DNA of 64,000 nucleotides from a virus: IMG/VR virus record IMGVR_UViG_3300045996_000252, positions 1,310 through 65,309 of that record, one strand, 5' to 3'. The position numbers were made by a program, and so were the translations under genes. Shown here piece by piece: positions 32 to 54,638 of this stretch. Below the pieces are notes generated by a model. That model did not search any database, had not been told where the DNA came from, and worked only from the letters and a program-made list of their open reading frames with translations. Positions within the stretch are counted from its first letter, which is position 1, and each line of letters starts with the position of its first letter.

Positions 32-108
32 TGGTCAGAACGGCAGGATTTGAACCTGCGACCACTACAACCCCAATGTAGTGCGCTACCGGACTGCGCT
101 ACGCTCTG
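32..108 (-). tRNA. tRNA, anticodon loop reads GGG (Pro?)
   Basis: T-arm rc motif GGATTTGAACC at 46-56. Acceptor stem pairs with G-U wobble. D-arm gcgc/gcgc. Anticodon stem ctaca/tgtag. CCA is encoded (tgg at 32-34). Confidence 0.65.
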
Positions 109-115
109 ATGAATT

Positions 116-190
116 TGGTCAAGGTGTACAGAATCGAACTGTATCCACATGCTCCCAAAGCACGTGTGCGGCCACTACACCACACCAAGA
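116..190 (-). tRNA. tRNA, anticodon loop reads TGG (Pro?); acceptor stem has 2 T-T mismatches
   Basis: T-arm tacag-aatcgaa-ctgta at 127-143. CCA is encoded. Anticodon loop rc is TTTGGGA. Confidence 0.5.
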
Positions 191-267
191 TGGTACCATG
201 TACGAGATTCGAACTCGTATTCTCCTGTTTGAAAGACAGGCTTCCTAAGCCGTTAGAAGAACATGGC
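191..267 (-). tRNA. tRNA-Glu(TTC)
   Basis: T-arm acgag-attcgaa-ctcgt. Anticodon arm cctgt-ttgaaag-acagg. CCA is encoded. Confidence 0.75.
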
Positions 268-272
268 ATGAT

Positions 273-348
273 TGGTAGCCCGCACCAGATTCGAACTGGT
301 GATCTTCACCTTGAGAGGGTGACGACTTTGCCGCTTGTCCAGCGGGCC
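273..348 (-). tRNA. tRNA-Glu(CTC)
   Basis: T-arm accag-attcgaa-ctggt. Anticodon arm tcacc-ttgagag-ggtga. CCA is encoded. Confidence 0.7.
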
Positions 349-351
349 ACG

Positions 352-642
352 CTAATTGTTGATGCGAGCGTGAACCTCACGCACTGCATCAGTTACTTCT
401 TGTACGTCAGCATCACCGAATCGGTTGATCGACTCTGCGATACACGATCCTCTGCATCGTGCAAGAGAAAGGTCTAACGTTTCTGTAAGGATGACTGTAG
501 GCACTCTACGCTTGTCGGTGTCATGATGCGTACGTCGCTCGTACATCTTCATGATCTTGAATCGCTCAACTTCATCAGCACGAGCGCCGGTTGCCGGTGT
601 GCCTACGAAGTTTACGAATGTCTCAGAGTACGCTGTTGCCAT
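352..642 (-). CDS. hypothetical small protein (97 aa) embedded in the tRNA array
   Basis: Internal Met (MATAYSETFVNF...) of the minus ORF 352..687 starts at 642 with a GGGGA RBS-like motif upstream. Codon usage is plausible. The upstream part of the ORF overlaps a tRNA and was excluded. Confidence 0.4.
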   Translation of the reverse strand: MATAYSETFVNFVGTPATGARADEVERFKIMKMYERRTHHDTDKRRVPTVILTETLDLSLARCRGSCIAESINRFGDADVQEVTDAVREVHARINN

Positions 643-658
643 GTAATCCCCTTTGTTT

Positions 659-736
659 TGGTGGAGGCGTGGAGAATCGAACTCCAATTTTGCGGGTGCA
701 AACCGCCCGTGTAGACACCACTAGCACTACACCCCC
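659..736 (-). tRNA. tRNA, anticodon probably TGC (Ala?)
   Basis: T-arm tggag-aatcgaa-ctcca at 670-686. Acceptor stem is 7 bp with G-U pairs. CCA is encoded. Confidence 0.6.
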
Positions 737-808
737 ACATATGGTGTTCGTTTCGTGAACCACTCGTCGGGCTGGTATACCGAAGGTCTGTTTGCGTCAG
801 ACCGCGTT

Positions 809-885
809 TGGCTGGAAGTGAAGGAGTCGAACCTTCAAACGCATGGTTCAAAGCCATACTGCTTTACCAGTTTGCATAACTTCCA
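809..885 (-). tRNA. tRNA-Gln(TTG)
   Basis: T-arm gaagg-agtcgaa-ccttc. Acceptor tggaagt/acttcca is perfect. Anticodon loop rc is CTTTGAA. Confidence 0.75.
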
Positions 886-894
886 ACGCGAATA

Positions 895-970
895 TGGTGT
901 CGCCACACCGGATCGAACGGTGACCTCAAGGGCTTCAACCTAGCGTACAGACCAACTATACGATAGCGAC
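895..970 (-). tRNA. tRNA-Phe(GAA)
   Basis: T-arm caccg-gatcgaa-cggtg. D-arm and acceptor mapped. Anticodon loop rc is TTGAAGC. Confidence 0.7.
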
Positions 971-975
971 ATGTT

Positions 976-1050
976 TGGCTGCGCAGACTTGGATTCGAAC
1001 CAAGATTGCCGGATTCAGAGTCCGTCTTCCTACCATTAGAAGATCACGCA
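976..1050 (-). tRNA. tRNA-Gln(CTG)
   Basis: T-arm cttgg-attcgaa-ccaag. Anticodon loop rc is CTCTGAA. The acceptor register is slightly uncertain. Confidence 0.6.
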
Positions 1051-1055
1051 ATGTG

Positions 1056-1131
1056 TGGCGGTCCCCAAGAGATTCGAACTCTCTGACTCTTGATTGACAA
1101 TCAAGCACCGATACCCTTTGGCTTCGGGACC
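1056..1131 (-). tRNA. tRNA-Asp(GTC)
   Basis: T-loop attcgaa at 1072-1078. Anticodon arm cttga-ttgacaa-tcaag. Confidence 0.7.
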
Positions 1132-1148
1132 ACGCTAATAAGGTTGTT

Positions 1149-1226
1149 TGGTACAGCAGACAGGATTCGAACCTGCACAGCATGCTTGGAAGGCACGAAT
1201 GCTTGACCGTTGAACATCACTGCTGC
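1149..1226 (-). tRNA. tRNA-Gly(TCC)
   Basis: T-loop attcgaa at 1165-1171. Acceptor acagcag/ctgctgc. Anticodon loop rc is CTTCCAA. Confidence 0.7.
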
Positions 1227-1233
1227 ACGTATA

Positions 1234-1310
1234 TGGTCAGGGGCAACGGATTCGAACCGATGCTGCTGGCGTCACAAGCCAGAGTGCTAGGCCACTAACA
1301 CTAGCCCCTA
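1234..1310 (-). tRNA. tRNA-His(GTG)
   Basis: T-loop attcgaa at 1250-1256. Anticodon arm ctggc-gtcacaa-gccag. Confidence 0.75.
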
Positions 1311-1315
1311 ATGAT

Positions 1316-1391
1316 TGGCGCGCCGCAAAGGAATCGAACCCTCACCTACGGGCTTCGAAGGCCCGTGTACTATCCGTTATACGAACGGCGC
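1316..1391 (-). tRNA. tRNA-Arg(TCG)
   Basis: T-loop aatcgaa at 1332-1338. Anticodon arm cgggc-ttcgaag-gcccg. Confidence 0.65.
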
Positions 1392-1397
1392 ATGATT

Positions 1398-1472
1398 TGG
1401 CAGGACGACTCGGATTCGAACCGAGAATAGCAGTTTTGGAGACTGCCGTGATAGCCGTTTCACTATCGACCT
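1398..1472 (-). tRNA. tRNA-Trp(CCA)
   Basis: T-arm ctcgg-attcgaa-ccgag. Anticodon arm gcagt-tttggag-actgc. Confidence 0.75.
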
Positions 1473-1478
1473 ATGATT

Positions 1479-1555
1479 TGGTCGGTACCGTGTGAATCGA
1501 ACACACCTTCACGTGCTTATCAGGCACGCCCTTTCCACCAGACAGGCAGATACCG
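1479..1555 (-). tRNA. tRNA-Ile(GAT)
   Basis: T-arm gtgtg-aatcgaa-cacac. Anticodon arm cgtgc-ttatcag-gcacg. Confidence 0.65.
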
Positions 1556-1625
1556 AAGGCTGCGGCTGACGCACTCCTTGTGCGCCACGTAATCCTCCCG
1601 TGCATAGGAGGGCCACAGAAATGTT

Positions 1626-1700
1626 TGGAGAGCCGAGTCGGGATCGAACCGACACCCTTGAGGGTAAGAACCTCCTGCACCACCGTTGTGCTACCGGCCC
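1626..1700 (-). tRNA. tRNA-Lys(CTT)
   Basis: T-arm gtcgg-gatcgaa-ccgac. Anticodon loop rc is TTCTTAC. Confidence 0.65.
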
Positions 1701-1705
1701 ATGTA

Positions 1706-1780
1706 TGGCGTCCCACACAGGAATCGAACCTGCATCGTATCCTTCGCAGGGATACATCCTATCCGTTGAACGAATGGGAC
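1706..1780 (-). tRNA. tRNA-Arg(GCG)?
   Basis: T-loop aatcgaa at 1722-1728. Anticodon arm tatcc-ttcgcag-ggata. Confidence 0.6.
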
Positions 1781-1786
1781 AATGTT

Positions 1787-1860
1787 TGGTGAGTCCGGTA
1801 GGGATCGAACCTACGACCATGTGCTTAAAAGGCACTTGCGACTACCGCTGCGCCACGGAC
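1787..1860 (-). tRNA. tRNA-Lys(TTT)
   Basis: T-arm gtagg-gatcgaa-cctac. Anticodon loop rc is CTTTTAA. Confidence 0.7.
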
Positions 1861-1867
1861 CCATGTT

Positions 1868-1953
1868 TGGCTGGCATGATAGGAGTCGAACCTATACGTA
1901 TCTTTCAACGCGTGGTTAACAGCCACGTGCGGCTACCATTTCGCCACATGCCA
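1868..1953 (-). tRNA. tRNA-like, 86 nt, anticodon arm reads GTT (Asn?) but carries a 15-nt variable region
   Basis: T-arm atagg-agtcgaa-cctat. Acceptor tggcatg/catgcca is perfect. Anticodon arm cgtgg-ttaacag-ccacg. The 15-nt insert between T-arm and anticodon arm is atypical for Asn. Confidence 0.5.
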
Positions 1954-2423
1954 ACGCTAATACGAGGGTTCTTACGTAGGAATATACCCACAACCTACAC
2001 ATGTAATGTGAGTAGTTTTACCCCATACTCAGGGGTCATATGACAGGATTGTTGGTTCCTGCAAGGCCGGTAACGATCCAATTAACAGTTAGATGACCGT
2101 CCAACTCACGCCGGGTTCCACCCTCACGCTTCGACTTTGGTAAGTCTTGCACAATCCTTACGGTCCCATACCTATGTATTACTTCCGGGGTGGCTGTTAC
2201 ACCACTTGCGCTTTTTACGCTACGTGCCCCGCCTACGCCTCGTTAGAAACGTTATTAGCGGTACATATGTCTGAGGGTTATAAGCCCTCATTATCAAATC
2301 GACGGTTCAGAACCAAGACTTCACCGACAACCCTGCTCAAGCGTCTTACTTACGTGTCGCAAGTGCAGTCGCGAGTTGCACGTGTCCACGACCTCCATCC
2401 GTCTATACCGGACGCTCCTGATT

Positions 2424-2510
2424 TGGTGCCTTGGGAGAGATTCGAACTCTCGTACCCCGAAGGGGACTGGTTTACAGCCAGCCTGCTTTATCCTCTTGCA
2501 TACCTTGGCA
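2424..2510 (-). tRNA. tRNA-Tyr(GTA), class II
   Basis: T-arm gagag-attcgaa-ctctc. Variable arm cccc-gaa-gggg. Anticodon arm ctgg-tttacag-ccag. Acceptor stem has 2 A-A mismatches. Confidence 0.65.
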
Positions 2511-2514
2511 TGAT

Positions 2515-2589
2515 TGGCGACCCTACAAGGATTCGAACCTTGTCCTAAGGCTTAGAACACCCATATGCTGTCCGTTACACTATAGGGCC
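2515..2589 (-). tRNA. tRNA, isotype undetermined
   Basis: T-arm caagg-attcgaa-ccttg. Acceptor gacccta/tagggcc. I could not fold the anticodon arm cleanly. Confidence 0.5.
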
Positions 2590-2594
2590 ATGTA

Positions 2595-2679
2595 TGGCGG
2601 AGACAGAGAGAGTCGAACTCCCACAACCTTTCGGTCATCAACGGGTTCAAACCGCATAAGCACGCCAATGCGTGTCTCC
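2595..2679 (-). tRNA. tRNA-Ser(TGA), class II
   Basis: T-loop agtcgaa at 2611-2617. Acceptor ggagaca/tgtctcc is perfect. Long variable arm. Anticodon loop gttcaaa. Confidence 0.65.
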
Positions 2680-2688
2680 GCGCTAGTA

Positions 2689-2752
2689 TGGACGCCATGT
2701 ATCTGCTTCGAAAAGACTCCGGTGGCATAGCCACGGGGATACTCCGCGTCCG
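2689..2752 (-). other. truncated tRNA-like element (about 62 nt; acceptor-like ends but no canonical T-arm)
   Basis: The ends ggacgcc/cgcgtcc pair. It occupies the slot between two tRNAs with the same atg...tgg punctuation. No TTCGAA T-loop is present. Confidence 0.3.
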
Positions 2753-2759
2753 TATATGT

Positions 2760-2835
2760 TGGTGCAAGTGGCGAGAGTCGAACTCGCGTTCCCCTACTTG
2801 GCAAGCAGGTATGTTGGCCGCTACACCACACATGC
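2760..2835 (-). tRNA. tRNA-Gly(GCC)
   Basis: T-arm gcgag-agtcgaa-ctcgc. D-arm and anticodon arm mapped. Anticodon loop rc is TTGCCAA. Confidence 0.7.
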
Positions 2836-2890
2836 ACAGAATTCAGTTGTTAACGCGGCGTTGCCAGTTGCCGCTCCGTTTGTTGTTACT

Positions 2891-2919
2891 ACTATAGCAG
2901 GGCTGTCAAGGCTTGTCAA
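2891..2919 (-). promoter_or_regulatory. sigma70/SigA-like promoter internal to the tRNA array, firing leftward
   Basis: On the minus strand: TTGACA (rc of 2914-2919), then 17 nt, then TATAGT (rc of 2891-2896). A second TTGACA (rc of 2904-2909) lies only 7 nt from the -10 box. Confidence 0.6.
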
Positions 2920-2937
2920 CCCCTAATTTTGAGAGTG

Positions 2938-3025
2938 TGGCGGATAGTGCAGGATTCGAACCTGCGGTACCTTGCGGTACACTTAGGTAGCAACCAAGCG
3001 CTTTCGTCCACTCAGCCAACTATCC
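2938..3025 (-). tRNA. tRNA-Ser(GCT), class II
   Basis: T-arm gcagg-attcgaa-cctgc. Acceptor ggatagt/actatcc is perfect. Long variable arm gtac...gtac. Anticodon arm cttag-gtagcaa-ccaag. Confidence 0.7.
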
Positions 3026-39895: not shown

Positions 39896-39943
39896 TCGCG
39901 CGCGTTCTTTTTTAGCGGGCGATCAGTACCAAACAATCCCAAT

Positions 39944-39959
39944 TAGAACGTACGTTCTA
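39944..39959. promoter_or_regulatory. operator palindrome, copy 4
   Basis: Exact TAGAACGTACGTTCTA. Confidence 0.6.
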
Positions 39960-40003
39960 GCACGCCTACGCCTACGCGTTCGGGTTCGCATTAGGGTTCG
40001 CAT

Positions 40004-40019
40004 TAGAACGTACGTTCGC
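40004..40019. promoter_or_regulatory. operator palindrome, imperfect copy (TAGAACGTACGTTCGC)
   Basis: 14 of 16 bases match. Confidence 0.45.
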
Positions 40020-40052
40020 ATTAGCCTACGCGTTAGGGTTCGCGTTCGCAAT

Positions 40053-40068
40053 TAGAACGTACGTTCTA
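40053..40068. promoter_or_regulatory. operator palindrome, copy 5
   Basis: Exact TAGAACGTACGTTCTA. Confidence 0.6.
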
Positions 40069-41379: not shown

Positions 41380-41480
41380 GCGCGCGCGTATATAGCCTTC
41401 GCGTTCGCCTTCGCCTTCGCGTAAGCCTTCCCACTAAGCCTTCGCACCTAATAGATAAAAAATATTGAATTTCGCCTTCG
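41380..41480. repeat. GCCTTCGC direct-repeat array
   Basis: Sequence cgcgttcgccttcgccttcgcgtaagccttcc...gccttcgc...cgccttcgc. The same motif occurs at 42841-42860, 47127-47150 and 48030-48056. Confidence 0.5.
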
Positions 41481-42743: not shown

Positions 42744-42864
42744 GAAGTACATTCGGAGCATTGTTCATCATCGTGGCGATTGTCATTGCCGGTGGTGCAG
42801 ATCACAAAAGAGAATTAGCAGAATCGCAGGCGTTCGCGTCAGAGCCTTCGCCTTCGCTTATCGA

Positions 42865-46225: not shown

Positions 46226-46458
46226 GAAGCCTTGAGCAGATCATTCACGACAATGGCAACGACAACACACCAGCACTCGACACGCACAACCTGACTGGAC
46301 GCGCAGCGCCTCGTGGCGTGGAGCCTGAGTGGGTTCCGTTGCAGTCTGACGATCCGATGGACGACTTTGAGGATCGTAACTACGCTTCCACGTTCCTTCT
46401 CGATGACGACGACTACGAGCCGGGGACCGAGTTCTTCGGATGGATTGACTGCGAGTAA
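46222..46458 (+). CDS. acidic hypothetical protein
   Basis: 78 aa, rich in D/E. Confidence 0.4.
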   Translation: MRSLEQIIHDNGNDNTPALDTHNLTGRAAPRGVEPEWVPLQSDDPMDDFEDRNYASTFLLDDDDYEPGTEFFGWIDCE

Positions 46459-46486
46459 CACGCAGGAAGCCCTAAAGGGCTGAGGA

Positions 46487-46505
46487 CTTGACAGCCAAGG
46501 TATAG
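46487..46505 (+). promoter_or_regulatory. promoter-like family motif TTGACAGCC-N7-TATAGTGGTGACAAC
   Basis: TTGACA at 46487-46492 and TATAGT at 46500-46505. The spacer is only 7 nt. There is no upstream -35 box at 17 nt. Confidence 0.35.
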
Positions 46506-46561
46506 TGGTGACAACGAACGGCGACATTGCCGACAAACACGACACATAGGAGGTACACATT

Positions 46562-46777
46562 ATGTCCAAGAGCACCGCCAAGCGTAACCGCAAGCCGAAG
46601 ACCGCCGCTGAGGTCGTTCCGACGCCCGAGGCCATCGCAGAGTTCGGATACATTCGGGCACTGATCCGTGCTCGCAATGCGGCAGGGTTCGTTTCCCCGA
46701 ACAAGGGCAAGGTTCGCCTGACCAAGAAGGAGCAGCGCCTCGCTGACGCTCACCTTCCCGACTTCGTTACTGCCTAA
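46562..46777 (+). CDS. small basic protein
   Basis: 71 aa, K/R-rich, with an RBS (aggaggtacacattATG). Confidence 0.5.
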   Translation: MSKSTAKRNRKPKTAAEVVPTPEAIAEFGYIRALIRARNAAGFVSPNKGKVRLTKKEQRLADAHLPDFVTA

Positions 46778-46803
46778 TTGACAGGCAGCGGGCCACCTGC
46801 TAT
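46775..46803 (+). promoter_or_regulatory. consensus sigma70-like promoter
   Basis: TTGACA at 46775-46780, 17 nt spacer, TATAGT at 46798-46803, then GGTGG. Confidence 0.65.
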
Positions 46804-47383
46804 AGTGGTGGCACCTACATCTGAATACTCAACCGAGGGTGGTATGCTACGGCTCTGCATGATGATGCTGGCTGAGGTACACGGTGGCCCATGCTTGCAT
46901 GGTGTCAACCAATCCGTCAGAGGCTATAGGCTTGTAACCCCGTGCGGTTGGTATGCTTGAGAGAGGTTGCAAACTCGCTCAGGCAGGTAGGTTGAGTGTT
47001 CAGATGTGGGTCATACTCAGGCTCACAGCGGCAGGAGTGCCGACGATATGATGGCGGGTATCGAGAATGCGGGGCAGCCCCTAGATGCCCGCCATCACAA
47101 ATTTTACCTTGCATAAAAAGCGGAGTCTTCGGAGCCTTCGGAGCCTTCGAAGAATCCGCCAAGAATCCGAAGAATCCGGTTATTTTATACAGGGCAAGTC
47201 ATACGCGGTGGGATAGGATTCCAACTTCTTCTCTGTTGGAGCCTCAGTCCGTTGTTCGCTTGCCCTCAGGGGAGTAGGTGCCCGAGGGAACGAGAAGCCG
47301 CGCTGCCTACTCCCCGGCTTACACACAGGTGGTCACGTGGGCCGAAAGAGTCTCGCGGGTTCTTCCCCGCTTGAGCCTAAACG
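46804..47383 (+). ncRNA. candidate structured non-coding RNA / leader (no ORF of 60 aa or more in any frame)
   Basis: 580 nt downstream of a consensus promoter. Tandem 9-mers at 47121-47180. A 10-bp-stem hairpin pairs ggggagtagg (47269-47278) with cctactcccc (47306-47315). Confidence 0.3.
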
Positions 47384-47767
47384 ATGATGTACCATAATGA
47401 TGCAGTGAAGTCCAGTCTGCACGCCTGTACTAATACTAAAGTTTTGAAGGAGGCAATGATGACGGAAACGATTTACGATTCGTACGATGGGGACAAACTT
47501 CCGGGTACGCTTTTGGCGCACGTGGATGAATCTGAGGCGTACGAAGTTGATCAGACGATGATTCGCCTAGACGGCGATGAGTGGATTCTGGCTACGGCCT
47601 CAGGATGCTCATGTTGGGACGGCGAGTGGTCAGTCGAGCGCTACGGCGATCTTGAGTCTCTTTTCCGTGCCCTTGGCGTGGAATCAGACGTTGAGCGCAT
47701 GTACAATCCTACGTTCGCGGGCGTTGAGGCGCTGCGAGCACAGGTGGAAGCGAAGTTGAACGCATGA
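47384..47767 (+). CDS. hypothetical protein (the start is probably MMTETIY at about 47457)
   Basis: 127-aa ORF; an aggaggcaatgatg RBS sits at the internal start. Confidence 0.45.
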   Translation: MMYHNDAVKSSLHACTNTKVLKEAMMTETIYDSYDGDKLPGTLLAHVDESEAYEVDQTMIRLDGDEWILATASGCSCWDGEWSVERYGDLESLFRALGVESDVERMYNPTFAGVEALRAQVEAKLNA

Positions 47768-47994
47768 GCGAGGTCACAGCGGCCTCGCTTATTGCGCGTT
47801 ATGCTTCGCACACTCTCACGTGCATGTACAACGCCACTAAGGCGCGCTCTATGCGCGAGGGCAACGGATACGGCGGGCGTGACTGGATGCTCAGGGAGGC
47901 GTGCACGTGTGGGCTGCGAGCGCTTCTAGCCGCCAACAGCGTGTCCGAACGGCTTTTAGGAGAGGCTAGCGACAATCATCGTCTGGAAAATTAG
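47764..47994 (+). CDS. hypothetical protein
   Basis: 76-aa ORF. ATGA coupling. Confidence 0.4.
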   Translation: MSEVTAASLIARYASHTLTCMYNATKARSMREGNGYGGRDWMLREACTCGLRALLAANSVSERLLGEASDNHRLEN

Positions 47995-48165
47995 GTCCGC
48001 GTTTGATCCCAATTTCCCAATTCAGGCGCACCTAAGAGCCTTCGCCTTCGCGTGAAGGTTGACAAATAAGGAGAGCCATGATAGTCTTACAAAAGTGTCC
48101 GGGTTGCAATCAGAAGATACCGATTGCAGACTTCAAGGAACACATGAAGCAGCACAAGGAGAAAG

Positions 48166-49869: not shown

Positions 49870-50447
49870 TGGCTGACCGAGATCACAAGTACATATTCTG
49901 GATCGACCTTGAAACAACAGGCTCCGATCTGGACACGGTGAACGAGCACAGCGGCGTACGCACTCGACACGAGATTATCGAGATTGGCGCGGTAATCACG
50001 GACATGAAGTTAAACGTACATGATGGGCGGAGCCATGTGATCGGCCACCAGATCGACATGGAGAATGTCGCTCCCGTGGTCGTGGACATGCACACCAAGA
50101 ATGGGCTGTGGAAGGACGTTGCCAAGTCTACGCTGACGATTGGCGAGGCTGACAACGAACTGGCCGAGTGGATCAAGCGTTTCAACGGAAACGACCACAT
50201 GGCGTTTGCAGGCTCAGGCATCATGCACTTCGACCGCAAGTTCATCCGGCGCGATTTGCCTTTGCTGGACAAGCGGATCACGCATTGGGGTCTGGACGTG
50301 GGAGTGATACGCCGGACGTTCAAATTCCTGCTTGGGTCCGAGGAATGGCCCGAGGACAACAAGAGCCATCGAGCCATTGACGACGCGTTGTTCCACATCG
50401 AGGAAATGCGCTTTGCACTTGACAAGATGCGCACGGGTGTGGTATAG
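49869..50447 (+). CDS. orn: DEDDh 3'-5' exonuclease, oligoribonuclease (Orn)/DnaQ-like
   Basis: Exo I 'FWIDLETTG', Exo II 'FAGSGIMHFDRKF' and Exo III 'HRAIDDA'. Size is 192 aa. Confidence 0.7.
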   Translation: MADRDHKYIFWIDLETTGSDLDTVNEHSGVRTRHEIIEIGAVITDMKLNVHDGRSHVIGHQIDMENVAPVVVDMHTKNGLWKDVAKSTLTIGEADNELAEWIKRFNGNDHMAFAGSGIMHFDRKFIRRDLPLLDKRITHWGLDVGVIRRTFKFLLGSEEWPEDNKSHRAIDDALFHIEEMRFALDKMRTGVV

Positions 50448-51533: not shown

Positions 51534-51562
51534 TTGACAGCCAGCCAAGGACCGGCTAAAGT
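51534..51562 (+). promoter_or_regulatory. sigma70-like promoter for the amidoligase operon
   Basis: TTGACAGCC at 51534, 17 nt spacer, TAAAGT at 51557-51562, then GGTGGG. An RBS (aaaggaggagac) precedes the ATG at 51587. Confidence 0.6.
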
Positions 51563-51586: not shown

Positions 51587-53359
51587 ATGCCACAATTAGA
51601 ACCCATAGAAGAAGGACGAGCGCAGTTCGGCCCCGAGGCTATCGACACTTGCCTAAGACAACGCGAACCGGGTACTCCATGCGTGCCGTGTGGTCCGTCT
51701 ATCCAGCGCCGCGATGCAGGCTGGAATTGGGACGCAAGCCTCGGCCAGTGGATCGAGCCTATGTACGAGCGTTGGGCGCGACGATGGGAAGAAATCTCCG
51801 GGTCATTTGATACCATATACAATGCCACGACTACTACCAATAACACTTTCACAGGCTGGAATTCATATCCACCACCATCTACACAGGAGGCATCACCTAT
51901 GCCGGACTTCAATGGACACAACACGTTCACTCGTGTGAGCACAAACGATAGGATGATCTACTGCTTCCAGTGCGATTCGCGAACCCAAGAAAGCAACATG
52001 TTCACGTGCAGCGAGGAAGGCGACTGGTTCTGTCGCCCCTGTGCTGAGGCGCACATTCACAATGGTGATCGCTGCGATTCGTGCGGGTTCCGCCTGCTCA
52101 ACGGAGGGGCTGCTACCGAGTGCGAAACCTGCGCCGTTGACGTGTGCCATGATCACATGCGACAAGACCACACTGGCTGCGCAATGGGCGGATACGATGG
52201 CCGTGATGACGGACGCTACTCTGGTCGTCCTCCGATTGAGGGCTACGGTCGAGAGGCCACGCTTGAGTATCTGGACGAGGATTACACCTTCCACCCGCTC
52301 GCTCTTGGCAAGCGCGCCGCTGCGGTCGAACTTGAGGTCGAGTGGGACGAGGAAACGAACAACGGTCGGGTGAACCTGCCCTACGCAGTTGGCATCGGTC
52401 ATGATGGCAGCCTTACGAACGGGATCGAAGTTACGACTCCGCCCGCCAAGGGTGCGCGTCTTGCCGAGGTCATGCTGGACACCACTCGCATCCTTGCGGC
52501 CAATGGCTACAGGGGTGAGACAACGTGCGGAATGCACACTCACATCGACCTTCGTGACAAGGTGGAAGACAAGCGGTTCCTATCGCATCTGTTCAACGCC
52601 TTCTTCGCAATCGAGGATATCCTGTACGCCATGCAGGGCGCTTCACGCTACAGCAACTCGTACAGCGTGCCACTGCGAGCCAACTACAAGTTCTTCGACA
52701 TGTACGGTCAGCGGTCGGGTGATTTCGACTACACGTTCTACCGCATGCCTAAGAACCTTGAGTCGCAGCGTGTCATTGCGCGTGAGAAGACGCAGAAGTA
52801 CGGCAGTCCACGCTACGCGGCGTTCAATTTCCACAGCGTCTACTACCGTGGCTCGCTTGAGTGCAGACTGCACGAGGGCACGGTCGATGGTGAGAGTGCG
52901 CTGATGTGGATTGACCTGTTGCAGAGCATCATCGCTCGTGTCGAGGATGGGCATTCGTACTCGGTCATGAAGAATCTTGCGAGCCAGATTGTGACGAAGA
53001 AGAAGGTACGTGCCTTCGCTCGTTACTTCCGGCTCACGGACAAGCAGACTCAGTACGTGATGGACAGAATCGAGAGCGGTCAGGGCTTTGGCTTTGAACT
53101 GCCGGACGGCATCATGTGGGGTGTCCCGATCAAGGGTCGTCCGACTCGCGAGCCTCGCGCTCCGCGTCGGCGCATGCTATACGCTGGCAGCATGGTGACG
53201 TGCCATGCGTGCTCGCACACGTGGTTGCTGGCTGGCAATCAGACAGAGTGCCCGCGCTGTTGGGGTGCCTTGATTGACAGATACGGCGCTAGGACTTACA
53301 ATAGGGTGAGTAGCAATACTTACTACAATCTCAACATTTCATCGTCATCGTTTAGGTAA
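51587..53359 (+). CDS. multi-zinc-ribbon domain fused to a glutamine-synthetase-like amidoligase (Amidoligase_2-like)
   Basis: 590 aa. The N-terminal region (aa 120-200) has at least 5 CxxC pairs. The C-terminal region carries 'TTCGMHTHIDL' and the overall character of a carboxylate-amine ligase. It is co-operonic with the GATase-II gene. Confidence 0.5.
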   Translation: MPQLEPIEEGRAQFGPEAIDTCLRQREPGTPCVPCGPSIQRRDAGWNWDASLGQWIEPMYERWARRWEEISGSFDTIYNATTTTNNTFTGWNSYPPPSTQEASPMPDFNGHNTFTRVSTNDRMIYCFQCDSRTQESNMFTCSEEGDWFCRPCAEAHIHNGDRCDSCGFRLLNGGAATECETCAVDVCHDHMRQDHTGCAMGGYDGRDDGRYSGRPPIEGYGREATLEYLDEDYTFHPLALGKRAAAVELEVEWDEETNNGRVNLPYAVGIGHDGSLTNGIEVTTPPAKGARLAEVMLDTTRILAANGYRGETTCGMHTHIDLRDKVEDKRFLSHLFNAFFAIEDILYAMQGASRYSNSYSVPLRANYKFFDMYGQRSGDFDYTFYRMPKNLESQRVIAREKTQKYGSPRYAAFNFHSVYYRGSLECRLHEGTVDGESALMWIDLLQSIIARVEDGHSYSVMKNLASQIVTKKKVRAFARYFRLTDKQTQYVMDRIESGQGFGFELPDGIMWGVPIKGRPTREPRAPRRRMLYAGSMVTCHACSHTWLLAGNQTECPRCWGALIDRYGARTYNRVSSNTYYNLNISSSSFR

Positions 53360-53372
53360 AGGAGAAACATAT

Positions 53373-54638
53373 ATGTGTGGACTTTGTGGGTCATTCACTC
53401 AGCAGGGCGTAGTCCTGTCGAAGCGTGACCGGACGCAACGTGCACGAGTGCTGGAAGGATTGCTGCTTGCCAATCAGGTGAGAGGTACCGACAGTGCTGG
53501 TGTCGCTGCCATCAAGTACGATGGGACGTACGATCTGTTGAAGGTCGCAACCCATCCCTATAGATTCGTGTCACGCGACGATGTGCAGGCGCTACTGCGC
53601 ACGGATGCTCCGCTCATGATTGCTCATACTCGTATGACCAGCATGGGCAATGATGTGACCGATGAGAACGCCCACCCTTTCGTAGAGGGTAGCGTCATCG
53701 GTGCGCACAACGGCATCATCAACAACTACATGCAGATCGACAGGACTGTGAACGTGGACTCGCAGGCGGTGTTCCGCTTGCTTGACTCGTACCCTGACGC
53801 ATACGATAGGGTGTTCCCGAAGGTGTCGGGATCGTGCGCCCTGTCGTGGTGGGATGCACGTGAGCCAGACGCTATGTTCCTAGTGGCTCACAACAATCCC
53901 ATGTCTGCGGCGTTCGTGCCGAGGATCAAGACGATCTTCTGGACGAGCGTGCTTGAGCACCTTGAGGCAGTGCTGCGCACAGCGTACGGCAACGCGGTGC
54001 AGTACATGGAAGTGAAGAAGGATACGATCTATCGCATTCCGGGCGACAACGTGTACGAGTGGCAGGAAGCCAAGGTTGAGTTCGGAACCGACTCATGGGG
54101 TTCATCCTACAGTTCGCAGATTCGTGTCTACGATCACGGCGGATACGGGTGGGATGATGCCGAGGAAGAAGAACTCTGGCGCACGGGGTTTACCTCTAAG
54201 GGACTGAGTTCTGTCCCAAAAGCGACTGCGGGATCGCCAACTGCCGAGGGCGGCACTACACTCCCGCAGCCAATGACACCAGAGGAGGAGGCCAGATACG
54301 AGTCCTATTGGGACAAGATGATGGCCGAGGACTCAGCAAGAGAGAGCGAAAGCGACTCAAGCGAGAGCGAAAGCGAGCAGCCCGTGAGGCTGCACGCACT
54401 CTCTGATGAGGAGTATGCGCAGATTGCGAACGAGCGGTTTGAGGTAGACGACCTTGACGGAACGCTCGATTGCATGTATTGTGATAAGCCCTTGGGTGAC
54501 AAGGGTGTGTGGGATAACGGGCTACAGATGATGCTGTGTAAGTATTGTCAGAAGTGGTGGGATGATTACGGTCATTACACCACCAAGCCCGTTCCAAGTG
54601 AAGCAGCGGTGAAAAAGTACCCGTTGCTTCTACAGTAG
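53373..54638 (+). CDS. class II (Ntn) glutamine amidotransferase with an acidic linker and a C-terminal zinc ribbon
   Basis: Begins 'MCGLCG' (Cys2 nucleophile). 'AHTRMTSMGN...NAHPF' and 'GAHNGIINNY' are GATase-II motifs. C-terminal 'CMYCDKP...CKYC'. Confidence 0.7.
   Translation: MCGLCGSFTQQGVVLSKRDRTQRARVLEGLLLANQVRGTDSAGVAAIKYDGTYDLLKVATHPYRFVSRDDVQALLRTDAPLMIAHTRMTSMGNDVTDENAHPFVEGSVIGAHNGIINNYMQIDRTVNVDSQAVFRLLDSYPDAYDRVFPKVSGSCALSWWDAREPDAMFLVAHNNPMSAAFVPRIKTIFWTSVLEHLEAVLRTAYGNAVQYMEVKKDTIYRIPGDNVYEWQEAKVEFGTDSWGSSYSSQIRVYDHGGYGWDDAEEEELWRTGFTSKGLSSVPKATAGSPTAEGGTTLPQPMTPEEEARYESYWDKMMAEDSARESESDSSESESEQPVRLHALSDEEYAQIANERFEVDDLDGTLDCMYCDKPLGDKGVWDNGLQMMLCKYCQKWWDDYGHYTTKPVPSEAAVKKYPLLLQ

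Follow-up and report, generated by a model that had tools for sequence, protein, structure and literature searches.

Introduction

In the tRNA operon of phage T4, two stable RNAs that are not transfer RNAs (tRNAs), species 1 and 2, are cotranscribed with the tRNAs from a strong promoter and released by tRNA-processing enzymes. Embedded cloverleaves mark the RNase P and 3' processing cuts in MALAT1 mascRNA, in the tRNA-miRNA transcripts of gammaherpesviruses and in the E. coli tRNA-tufB operon. RNase III stems flank ribosomal RNAs and the early RNAs of phage T7. Here we analysed a locus which recalls these systems in a 64,000-nucleotide (nt) stretch of viral DNA, IMG/VR record IMGVR_UViG_3300045996_000252, positions 1,310 to 65,309 (the window). 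It lies between two small genes and is a locus for a structured non-coding RNA that related phages conserve; the RNA family is new, though its general kind is known. Its product is most likely a folded non-coding RNA of ~200 nt which is transcribed from a strong promoter, is kept in related phages and belongs to no catalogued family.

With T4 species 1 and 2 the locus shares a non-tRNA stable RNA accompanied by tRNA-like pieces and a strong promoter, with processing that here is predicted. The sequences are unrelated, however, and the tRNA-like part in the window is reduced to one hairpin. The likeness to the mascRNA-type signals is functional only, with no homology, and the window's locus itself is without a cloverleaf. 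As with RNase III stems, an uninterrupted helix of at least 20 base pairs (bp) forms from sequences on either side of a structured RNA. Here the helix begins at the predicted 5' end, so its role may be to protect that end and not to serve as a cleavage site.

The closest in kind are GOLLD and ROOL, which are likewise phage-borne, rich in helices, free of open reading frames (ORFs), several hundred nt long and linked to phage tRNAs. Half of GOLLD is conserved and the other half variable, with tRNAs sometimes located in its linker or variable part (PMC12286853). Our locus similarly has a conserved domain followed by a variable stretch, with tRNA-like elements in the relatives. It differs in having no Rfam match at E = 10 and a conserved core of only ~200 nt. 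GOLLD and ROOL assemble into homo-oligomeric cages. As for their location near tRNA islands, the window's array of 21-22 tRNAs is 44 kb away from the locus, while the relatives' loci themselves hold tRNA-like elements. Structured RNAs have also been predicted in bulk from IMG/VR phage contigs; these are conserved and intergenic, some are tRNA-like and most have no known function (PMC10690425). The lineage described here probably lies outside that catalogue, judging from 0 true matches in our DNA scans of IMG/VR.

Results

A conserved RNA domain closed by a 22-bp helix

The core of the locus is Module A, in which helix P1 closes a junction of four inner helices. The features of this part in window coordinates are:

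46778 to 46806, plus strand: sigma-70-type promoter, TTGACA-17-TATAGT with TGn; start predicted from the spacing at A46813
46813 to 47011, plus strand: Module A, structured domain of 199 nt beginning at the predicted transcription start
46813 to 46834 with 46990 to 47011, plus strand: P1, uninterrupted closing helix of 22 bp, an inverted repeat with covariation
46836 to 46856, plus strand: P2, inside P1
46867 to 46877 with 46914 to 46924, plus strand: P3, enclosing a variable hairpin at 46883 to 46910
46935 to 46950, plus strand: P4, inside P1
46954 to 46985, plus strand: P5, inside P1

The initial annotation, which had proposed a highly structured candidate non-coding RNA downstream of a consensus promoter, overlooked this ~200-nt domain and its closing helix. 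The description as highly structured holds for 46810-47200, where the fold energy of the plus strand was -172.7 kcal/mol (z = -6.8) and that of the minus strand -149.7 kcal/mol. It does not hold for 47185-47460 as a whole (z = -0.5).

Module A is present in six related contigs from metagenomes, with a remnant of P1 in a seventh. Homologues of the whole domain, the long type, were found in three related loci (L002 4426-4623, L004 1857-2054 and L013 517-728). In the short type (L006 and L012) P1 and some motifs are retained and the interior is shorter. In L003 (4305-4347) the interior is gone and what remains is the outer part of P1 as a 13-bp hairpin followed by U6, which looks like a terminator; this remnant still carries a compensatory change relative to L002. 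The DNA identity of Module A between the window and its three long-type relatives was 80-81%, compared with 69-78% for the flanking genes.

We derived a consensus fold from the four long-type sequences (window, L002, L004 and L013). It contains 62 pairs in eight helical segments, and 97.6% of its pair cells hold standard pairs, against 33-42% when the partners were slid by 1-3 columns. Covariation across related phages, proposed as a check with the initial annotation, supported the fold: both sides had changed in a compensatory way in 14 of the 62 pairs, while shuffles gave 4.9 +/- 1.7 and none of 500 reached the observed number. A covariance model trained on the same four sequences, with the two short-type homologues left out of the training, scored these two at 46 and 43 bits and the L003 remnant at 22 bits. 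It found exactly one copy per locus and no second copy in the window or in the other loci.

P1 gave the clearest view of what is conserved. Across six homologues it contains 121 Watson-Crick pairs, nine G·U, no A·C and two other mismatches; in four of the six it consists only of Watson-Crick and G·U pairs, and each of the remaining two has one mismatch. All of the wobbles are wobbles on the plus strand only, which points to selection on RNA of this strand and not on duplex DNA or terminal inverted repeats. Together with the coding analysis below, we take this to show that the target of selection is the plus-strand RNA and neither a protein nor double-stranded DNA. With its 22 uninterrupted pairs P1 also has the ~20 bp or more of continuous double-stranded RNA that characterises RNase III substrates, and it may be cleaved. 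A 9-nt complementarity between the 5' end and 47274-47282 was set aside, as about one such match is estimated by chance in a region of this size.

The promoter and the extent of the non-coding stretch

The promoter consists of TTGACA (46778-46783), a 17-nt spacer ending in TGC, which provides the TGn of an extended -10, and TATAGT (46801-46806), all on the plus strand. It has the -35 and -10 hexamers at the 17 +/- 1 nt spacing typical of sigma-70, and its activity is predicted. The initial annotation had correctly recognised it but placed it 3 nt too low, at 46775-46803, and ranked it as the best promoter of the window. It does have the top score (11/12 plus extended -10), which it shares with four others at 50419 (plus), 36247 (minus), 3121 (minus) and 2919 (minus). 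The pattern TTGACA-N15-19-TATAGT occurs three times in the window against a chance expectation of 0.03. Two of the tied promoters, 3121-3093 and 2919-2891 on the minus strand, sit at the upstream end of the tRNA array and are directed into it.

A promoter of the form TTGACA...GCGGGCCACCnGCTATAnTGGTGGC opens the non-coding stretch in the window and in L002, L003 and L004. L006, L007 and L013 have variants of it, and TTGACA...GCTATAnT is common to these six relatives. In L012 the promoter is lost. In the window the TAA stop codon of the upstream gene directly abuts the -35 box. We considered the palindrome GCCACC...GGTGGC around the -10 box as an operator, but several promoters of the phage have AGTGGTG after the -10 box, which weakened this reading. 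In the relatives the same two palindrome halves make a hairpin just 5' of P1. Shortly before the upstream gene, at 46488-46510, TTGACA and TATAGTGGTG are only 7 nt apart, which resembles a deleted copy of the promoter type of this phage (for example 51534-51562).

The ORF-free region had been thought to end at 47383, yet the non-coding stretch reaches to the start codon at 47456 and is ~680 nt long. This start is preceded by a ribosome-binding site (RBS), GAAGGAGG, at 47446-47453. Position 47384 is the first in-frame ATG of the downstream ORF and an improbable gene start.

The interval has no conserved reading frame

The claim that no ORF of 60 aa (amino acids) or more exists in the interval was true for ATG starts, of which the longest ORF has 43 aa, and failed for GTG and TTG starts:

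46778 to 46960, plus strand: mechanical ORF of 60 aa, TTG start
46996 to 47277, plus strand: mechanical ORF of 93 aa, GTG start
46917 to 47162, minus strand: mechanical ORF of 81 aa, TTG start

The codon-usage scores of the interval ORFs ranged from -0.38 to +0.07 and were negative for six of the seven, compared with +0.09 to +0.58 for seven small neighbouring genes. None of these ORFs matched a protein family in Pfam or PHROGs. Among the relatives, translated similarity appeared in all six frames and switched frame along the alignment, the pattern expected from conservation at the DNA level alone. The best-looking start is GAGGGUGG-AUG at 46844, which opens a 38-aa ORF with a GAGGG resembling a Shine-Dalgarno sequence before the ATG. 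This frame meets a stop 5-6 codons later in L002 and L004, and in L013 the ATG is replaced by ACG. A conserved small ORF covering the region, which would have spoken against the proposal of the initial annotation, was therefore not found: across the related loci no frame is kept, and none of the ORFs tested has coding-like codon usage.

Variable hairpins downstream of Module A

Between Module A and the downstream gene the window contains the following features:

47012 to 47048, plus strand: linker, of which the first ~23 nt (CATACTCAGGCTCACAGCG) are common to L013
47049 to 47097, plus strand: G+C-rich hairpin with a 14-bp stem (17-nt inverted repeat), then ACAAAUUUU; -30.6 kcal/mol, z = -4.8
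47107 to 47194, plus strand: long imperfect repeat hairpin whose arms are two sets of 9-mers; -36.1 kcal/mol, z = -4.0
47191 to 47266, plus strand: tentative hairpin domain predicted from folding; 3' half common to L008, L009 and L011
47269 to 47315, plus strand: hairpin resembling an acceptor stem, 12-bp stem GGGGAGUAGGUG/...CCUACUCCCC, loop GAGGGAACGAGAAGCC, then GGCUUACACAC
47316 to 47455, plus strand: conserved tail, or 5' leader of the downstream gene, with a long-range helix, a weak promoter-like site and the RBS

The hairpin at 47049-47097 has no homologue among the relatives and is a possible first terminator. The tandem 9-mers reported earlier were recovered as CGGAGCCTT (3.2 copies, 47121-47149) and CGAAGAATC (3.2 copies, 47148-47178), and the two sets turned out to be the two arms of the 47107-47194 hairpin. 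This hairpin is preceded by an A-run, followed by UUAUUUUAUA and contains GCCTTCG twice, so that it looks like a bidirectional terminator. Where the contigs of relatives extend over this part of the locus, they contain no counterpart of its 9-mers, and the window has no further copies elsewhere. Assemblies from two other samples stop or start within ~40 nt of the repeat hairpin, likely because the repeat and the palindrome confuse the assembler. More broadly, short-read assemblies of several samples break at ~47190-47225 (the end of the SRR35973793 Logan contig and the ends of L008-L011), mostly at this hairpin. As these breaks fall inside the non-coding locus, the true diversity of the region is probably under-sampled.

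The motif GCCTTCG is present in 25 copies in the window against 9.1 expected. Tandem GCCTTCGCCTTCG is found ~10-20 nt upstream of two -35 boxes (42844-42856 and 48038-48050), and five GCCTTCG copies with A+T-rich flanks lie at 41395-41480. The tandem motif is also kept in the equivalent intergenic space of the relatives (L002 5862-5889, L004 3144-3175, L005 668-699, L010 669-681 and L011 807-819) and is a candidate binding site for a phage regulator or replication protein.

The hairpin with a 10-bp stem which had been noted at 47269-47315 was confirmed (47269-47278 with 47306-47315), and its conservation extends to L008, L009 and L011. The L011 stem consists of other bases (GGGGAGCAGUUGACC / GGUCAACUCUCCCC) and still pairs, and the loop GAGGGAACGAGAAGCC is retained. 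The ends of the hairpin, GGGGAGU.../...CUCCCC GGCUUACACAC, resemble the acceptor stem and the GCUACACAC trailer of the tRNA-like elements in L002, L004, L006 and L012. It is best read as a reduced relative of this tRNA mimic, although the aligner also matches its loop to the trailer hairpin of the relatives, which leaves the exact homology uncertain.

In the tail, ACAGGUG (47325-47331) pairs with CGCCUGU (47422-47428), and this helix covaries, with UACAGG/CCUGUA in L002 and CACAGG/CCUGUG in L004. The weak promoter-like site lies at 47371-47398. The tail is near-invariant in L008, L010 and L011.

A mosaic locus with tRNA-like elements in the relatives

In megablast and blastn searches, the locus and the surrounding 15 kb matched none of 50,697 phage records, and homologues of the flanking proteins were confined to a few metagenome assemblies. 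No cultured phage has a terminase with more than 28% identity to that of this phage. Five related loci span the whole non-coding region (L002, L003, L004, L006 and L012), L013 covers all but its 3' end, and L005 and L007-L011 are partial. Each of the five spanning loci has a gene for a protein of 63-73 aa followed by 660-1085 nt without a credible gene. DNA-pattern scans of IMG/VR, JGI metagenomes and GTDB genomes for the promoter, Module A and the module blocks of the relatives gave no true match. The sole scan match, L014, lies inside a coding region and was dismissed as chance. IMG/VR contained a single relative of the downstream gene, L001 (42% identity), which was also rejected, as it has no comparable RNA locus.

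The relatives differ from the window and from each other in how the locus is composed. They carry an extra module of ~150 nt between the promoter and Module A, and L002, L003 and L004 have a 3' module of ~200 nt. The distance from Module A to the next gene is ~450 to 700 nt with varying modules between, and in L003, L006 and L012 different genes follow the locus. Contigs that have otherwise diverged share blocks of 34-48 nt at 96-100% identity. Modules are bordered by short repeats such as GGTGGCAnCTACATC, which could mediate the swaps.

Four of the relatives have a tRNA-like element with acceptor, D and T arms:

L002, 4917 to 5063
L004, 2191 to 2336
L006, about 2111 to 2250
L012, about 944 to 1075

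The elements of L002 and L004 scored 43 bits on the Rfam tRNA model (threshold 29), and ARAGORN called none of the four. A long branched arm replaces the anticodon arm (an 84-85-nt insertion in L002 and L004). The elements end in GCUAC rather than CCA; the corresponding end of the window's hairpin is GGCUUAC. The T arm of the L002 element includes a 20-nt stretch identical to the window's tRNA-Gly(UCC), and the element resembles the mascRNA model weakly (24.8 bits, threshold 42.5). A second, smaller tRNA-like piece without a D arm stands right after Module A in L002 (4623-4690) and L006 (1885-1950). It has a short acceptor-like stem, a hairpin which covaries between the two loci and the T-arm loop UUCGAUU / UUCGACU.

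The tRNA array itself (window 32-3025, minus strand) consists of 21 genes called by ARAGORN and one more by Rfam at 1059-1131, and all 21 ARAGORN tRNAs encode CCA. In a 470-nt gap of this array (1954-2423, minus strand) we noticed UAACGAGGCG at 2236-2245, a 10-mer that also trails the tRNA-like elements of the relatives. It is followed by a GGGG...CCCC hairpin with a piece resembling a D arm, whose fold z is only -1.8.

Comparison with known RNA classes

The Rfam/Infernal scan suggested with the initial annotation assigned no family, be it GOLLD, ROOL, 6S, tmRNA (transfer-messenger RNA), HEARO, OLE, raiA, riboswitches, ribozymes or small RNAs (sRNAs). Across the whole window, Rfam 15 detected nothing besides the array tRNAs at 35-3025. 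The top match in 46400-47800 at E <= 10 was a plant microRNA model with 21 bits against a threshold of 100, and in the relatives' loci only tRNA reached the threshold. Neither ARAGORN nor Rfam detected a tRNA cloverleaf in 46400-47800. ARAGORN found no tmRNA in the window or the relatives, and a short frame after GCA in P5 is not conserved. The fold is a multi-helix junction and not the rod with a central bubble of 6S RNA, for which Rfam also gave no match.

Two roles considered earlier were thus abandoned. A riboswitch lacked an Rfam match, and for an RNA antitoxin there is no toxin-like neighbour and no ToxI-type repeat. ToxI-type antitoxins combine repeats of ~34-36 nt with a toxin endoribonuclease, but here the repeats are 9-mers that form a hairpin, and the neighbours match no toxin or defence model. 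A retron RNA was rejected since Pfam identified no reverse-transcriptase domain among the genes checked. In the 10 kb scanned around the locus, the only Pfam matches were Band_7, amidoligase and amidotransferase.

Flanking genes and other features of the window

The genes on either side of the locus are:

46562 to 46777, plus strand: upstream gene, encoding a basic protein of 71 aa; in every relative it immediately precedes the RNA locus
47456 to 47767, plus strand: downstream gene for a 103-aa acidic protein, no family assigned

The 71-aa protein had no match in Pfam, PHROG, PADLOC, NCBIfam or the PDB. A profile search of 1.84 billion representative proteins returned five matches without a functional clue, and its structure model was uninformative (two helices, predicted local distance difference test (pLDDT) 71.5). 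Farther away, a 354-nt gap contains a 60-nt tandem repeat at 39942-40055 (1.9 copies) together with shorter CGTTCG-type repeats. It is near the boundary between the leftward and rightward gene blocks and may be a regulatory region or an origin. Adjacent genes for an amidoligase (590 aa) and a glutamine amidotransferase (421 aa) occupy 51587-54638, and the relatives keep the position of the amidoligase. We take this pair to recall phage modules for DNA modification or small-molecule ligation.

Discussion

The original proposal of a structured non-coding RNA is upheld by conservation, compensatory changes, strand-specific G·U pairs and the absence of a conserved ORF, though the features cited for it are not the core of the locus. 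We consider it probable that this interval of an uncultivated tailed phage is an operon for stable, non-coding RNA, with a ~200-nt junction RNA clamped by the 22-bp helix at its core. Transcription would start at A46813, the first base of P1, and the 5' end of the primary transcript would therefore be fully paired and protected. Most transcripts would end at the window-specific hairpins, at ~47100 or ~47192, giving an RNA of ~290-380 nt, and others may continue past the acceptor-like hairpin and the structured tail to reach the downstream genes. P1 could serve as a stability clamp, as an RNase III processing site, or as both, and in the relatives tRNA-processing enzymes would excise the tRNA-like elements. 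Once released, the domain would be a trans-acting accessory stable RNA, which might for instance bind or titrate a protein of the host or of the phage; a role of the locus RNA as a decoy or sRNA may fit. A mosaic of modules that changes this fast speaks more for an accessory role, for example in host takeover or counter-defence, than for an essential one, and we also counted the L003 remnant of Module A toward the accessory nature of the domain.

Several observations weigh against this reading. The transcript start, ends and processing are all deduced from the DNA. The covariation statistics are supportive but indicative rather than rigorous, and not a proof, because the homologues are few and closely related and the structure was derived from the same sequences. 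The hairpins at 47049-47097 (-30.6 kcal/mol) and 47107-47194 (-36.1 kcal/mol), which with the following ACAAAUUUU and UUAUUUUAUA have features of intrinsic terminators, were both missing from the list of the consensus terminator scan, and the repeat hairpin is slightly more stable on the minus strand than on the plus strand. Reading through the relatives' loci, with no terminator scan run on them, we noticed no obvious terminator in the space from the RNA modules to the following gene. No partner protein was identified, and the search for base-pairing targets in the rest of the window gave 21 matches against 19.6 expected, which is the chance level. In L009 the tail is wholly absent and the acceptor-like hairpin directly abuts the RBS, which favours a leader function.

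Such a leader would act in cis: the strong promoter would drive the genes from 47456 onward, and the folded RNA together with the terminator-like hairpins would set the level of transcription or translation that these genes receive, through attenuation or through processive antitermination as in the lambda N/nut or HK022 put systems, with the 71-aa basic protein, whose gene always adjoins the locus, as a possible RNA-binding partner. We judge this possible though rather unlikely. We keep it in consideration because no clear terminator was seen in the relatives, structure in the tail continues as far as the RBS, with a covarying helix, and the basic-protein gene is always adjacent. The position of the L009 hairpin immediately before the RBS and the two terminator-like hairpins between Module A and the gene in the window point the same way. 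However, we favoured a free-standing RNA because Module A is closed and self-contained, its distance to the next gene, the intervening modules and the downstream genes themselves all vary, and the promoter type is shared with the tRNA operon. There was also no match to a riboswitch or leader family, and the weak promoter-like site at 47371-47398 could serve the downstream gene alone. Known nut and put elements are 40-70 nt long and not 200-nt junctions. Conceivable, yet doubtful, is that the locus is a new kind of phage "RNA island", in which promoter-driven and rapidly reshuffled cassettes of stable RNAs act against host defences that target RNA or tRNA, or form a large RNA particle like those of GOLLD and ROOL. 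Its cassettes would be the junction domain with the 22-bp clamp, the tRNA mimics without anticodon arm and CCA, and the further modules.

The remaining explanations account for less of the locus. The 9-mers (GAGCCTTCG and their inverted relatives) could form a protein-binding array, an operator or origin iterons, with the inverted repeats acting as DNA. The enrichment of GCCTTCG, its tandems near -35 boxes, its five copies at 41395-41480, the retention of the tandem motif in other intergenic spaces of the relatives and the equal stability of the repeat hairpin on both strands speak for this, but it would explain only the window-specific 47121-47180. The nine wobbles of Module A, all G·U on the plus strand and none A·C, indicate RNA; there is no GC-skew switch at the locus, and the repeats are spaced by 9 nt in the hairpin compared with 6 nt in the promoter-proximal tandems. 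As an account of the locus we find a DNA element quite unlikely. The protein-binding array of the initial annotation survives for the repeat hairpin only, through the shared GCCTTCG, and the 9-mer array may double as a DNA site or be one instead. It is very unlikely, in our view, that the hairpins and tRNA-like pieces are drifting pseudogenes of a decaying second tRNA cluster with an old tRNA promoter. The relatives' elements do have abnormal anticodon arms and no CCA, compared with CCA in 21/21 true tRNAs, the T-arm identity to tRNA-Gly(UCC) extends over 20 nt and the module content varies by contig. But Module A is better conserved than the neighbouring genes, and the compensatory changes which maintain P1, P3, P5, the acceptor-like hairpin and the P1 remnant of L003, together with the near-identical 34-48-nt blocks shared by diverged relatives, would not result from drift. 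Most improbable is that the interval codes for one or more small proteins, such as the 93-aa GTG ORF or the 38-aa ORF at 46844. The mechanical ORFs exist and GAGGG precedes the 46844 ATG, yet that start or its frame is not kept in L002, L004 and L013, the frame switches between relatives, the codon usage is like that of non-coding DNA and no family matches.

The immediate reach of a conserved clamped RNA domain in this phage is limited, since it rests on a handful of metagenomic contigs of a rare lineage. Nevertheless, each independent family in a setting like that of GOLLD and ROOL is another handle on what such RNAs do. This domain is small (~200 nt), has a clear promoter and offers a testable architecture of clamp plus junction. 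Natural deletion and swap variants exist in metagenomes, and the domain is practical to synthesise, to probe and to test for partners. The tRNA mimics of the relatives could bear on how phages handle defences that attack tRNAs.

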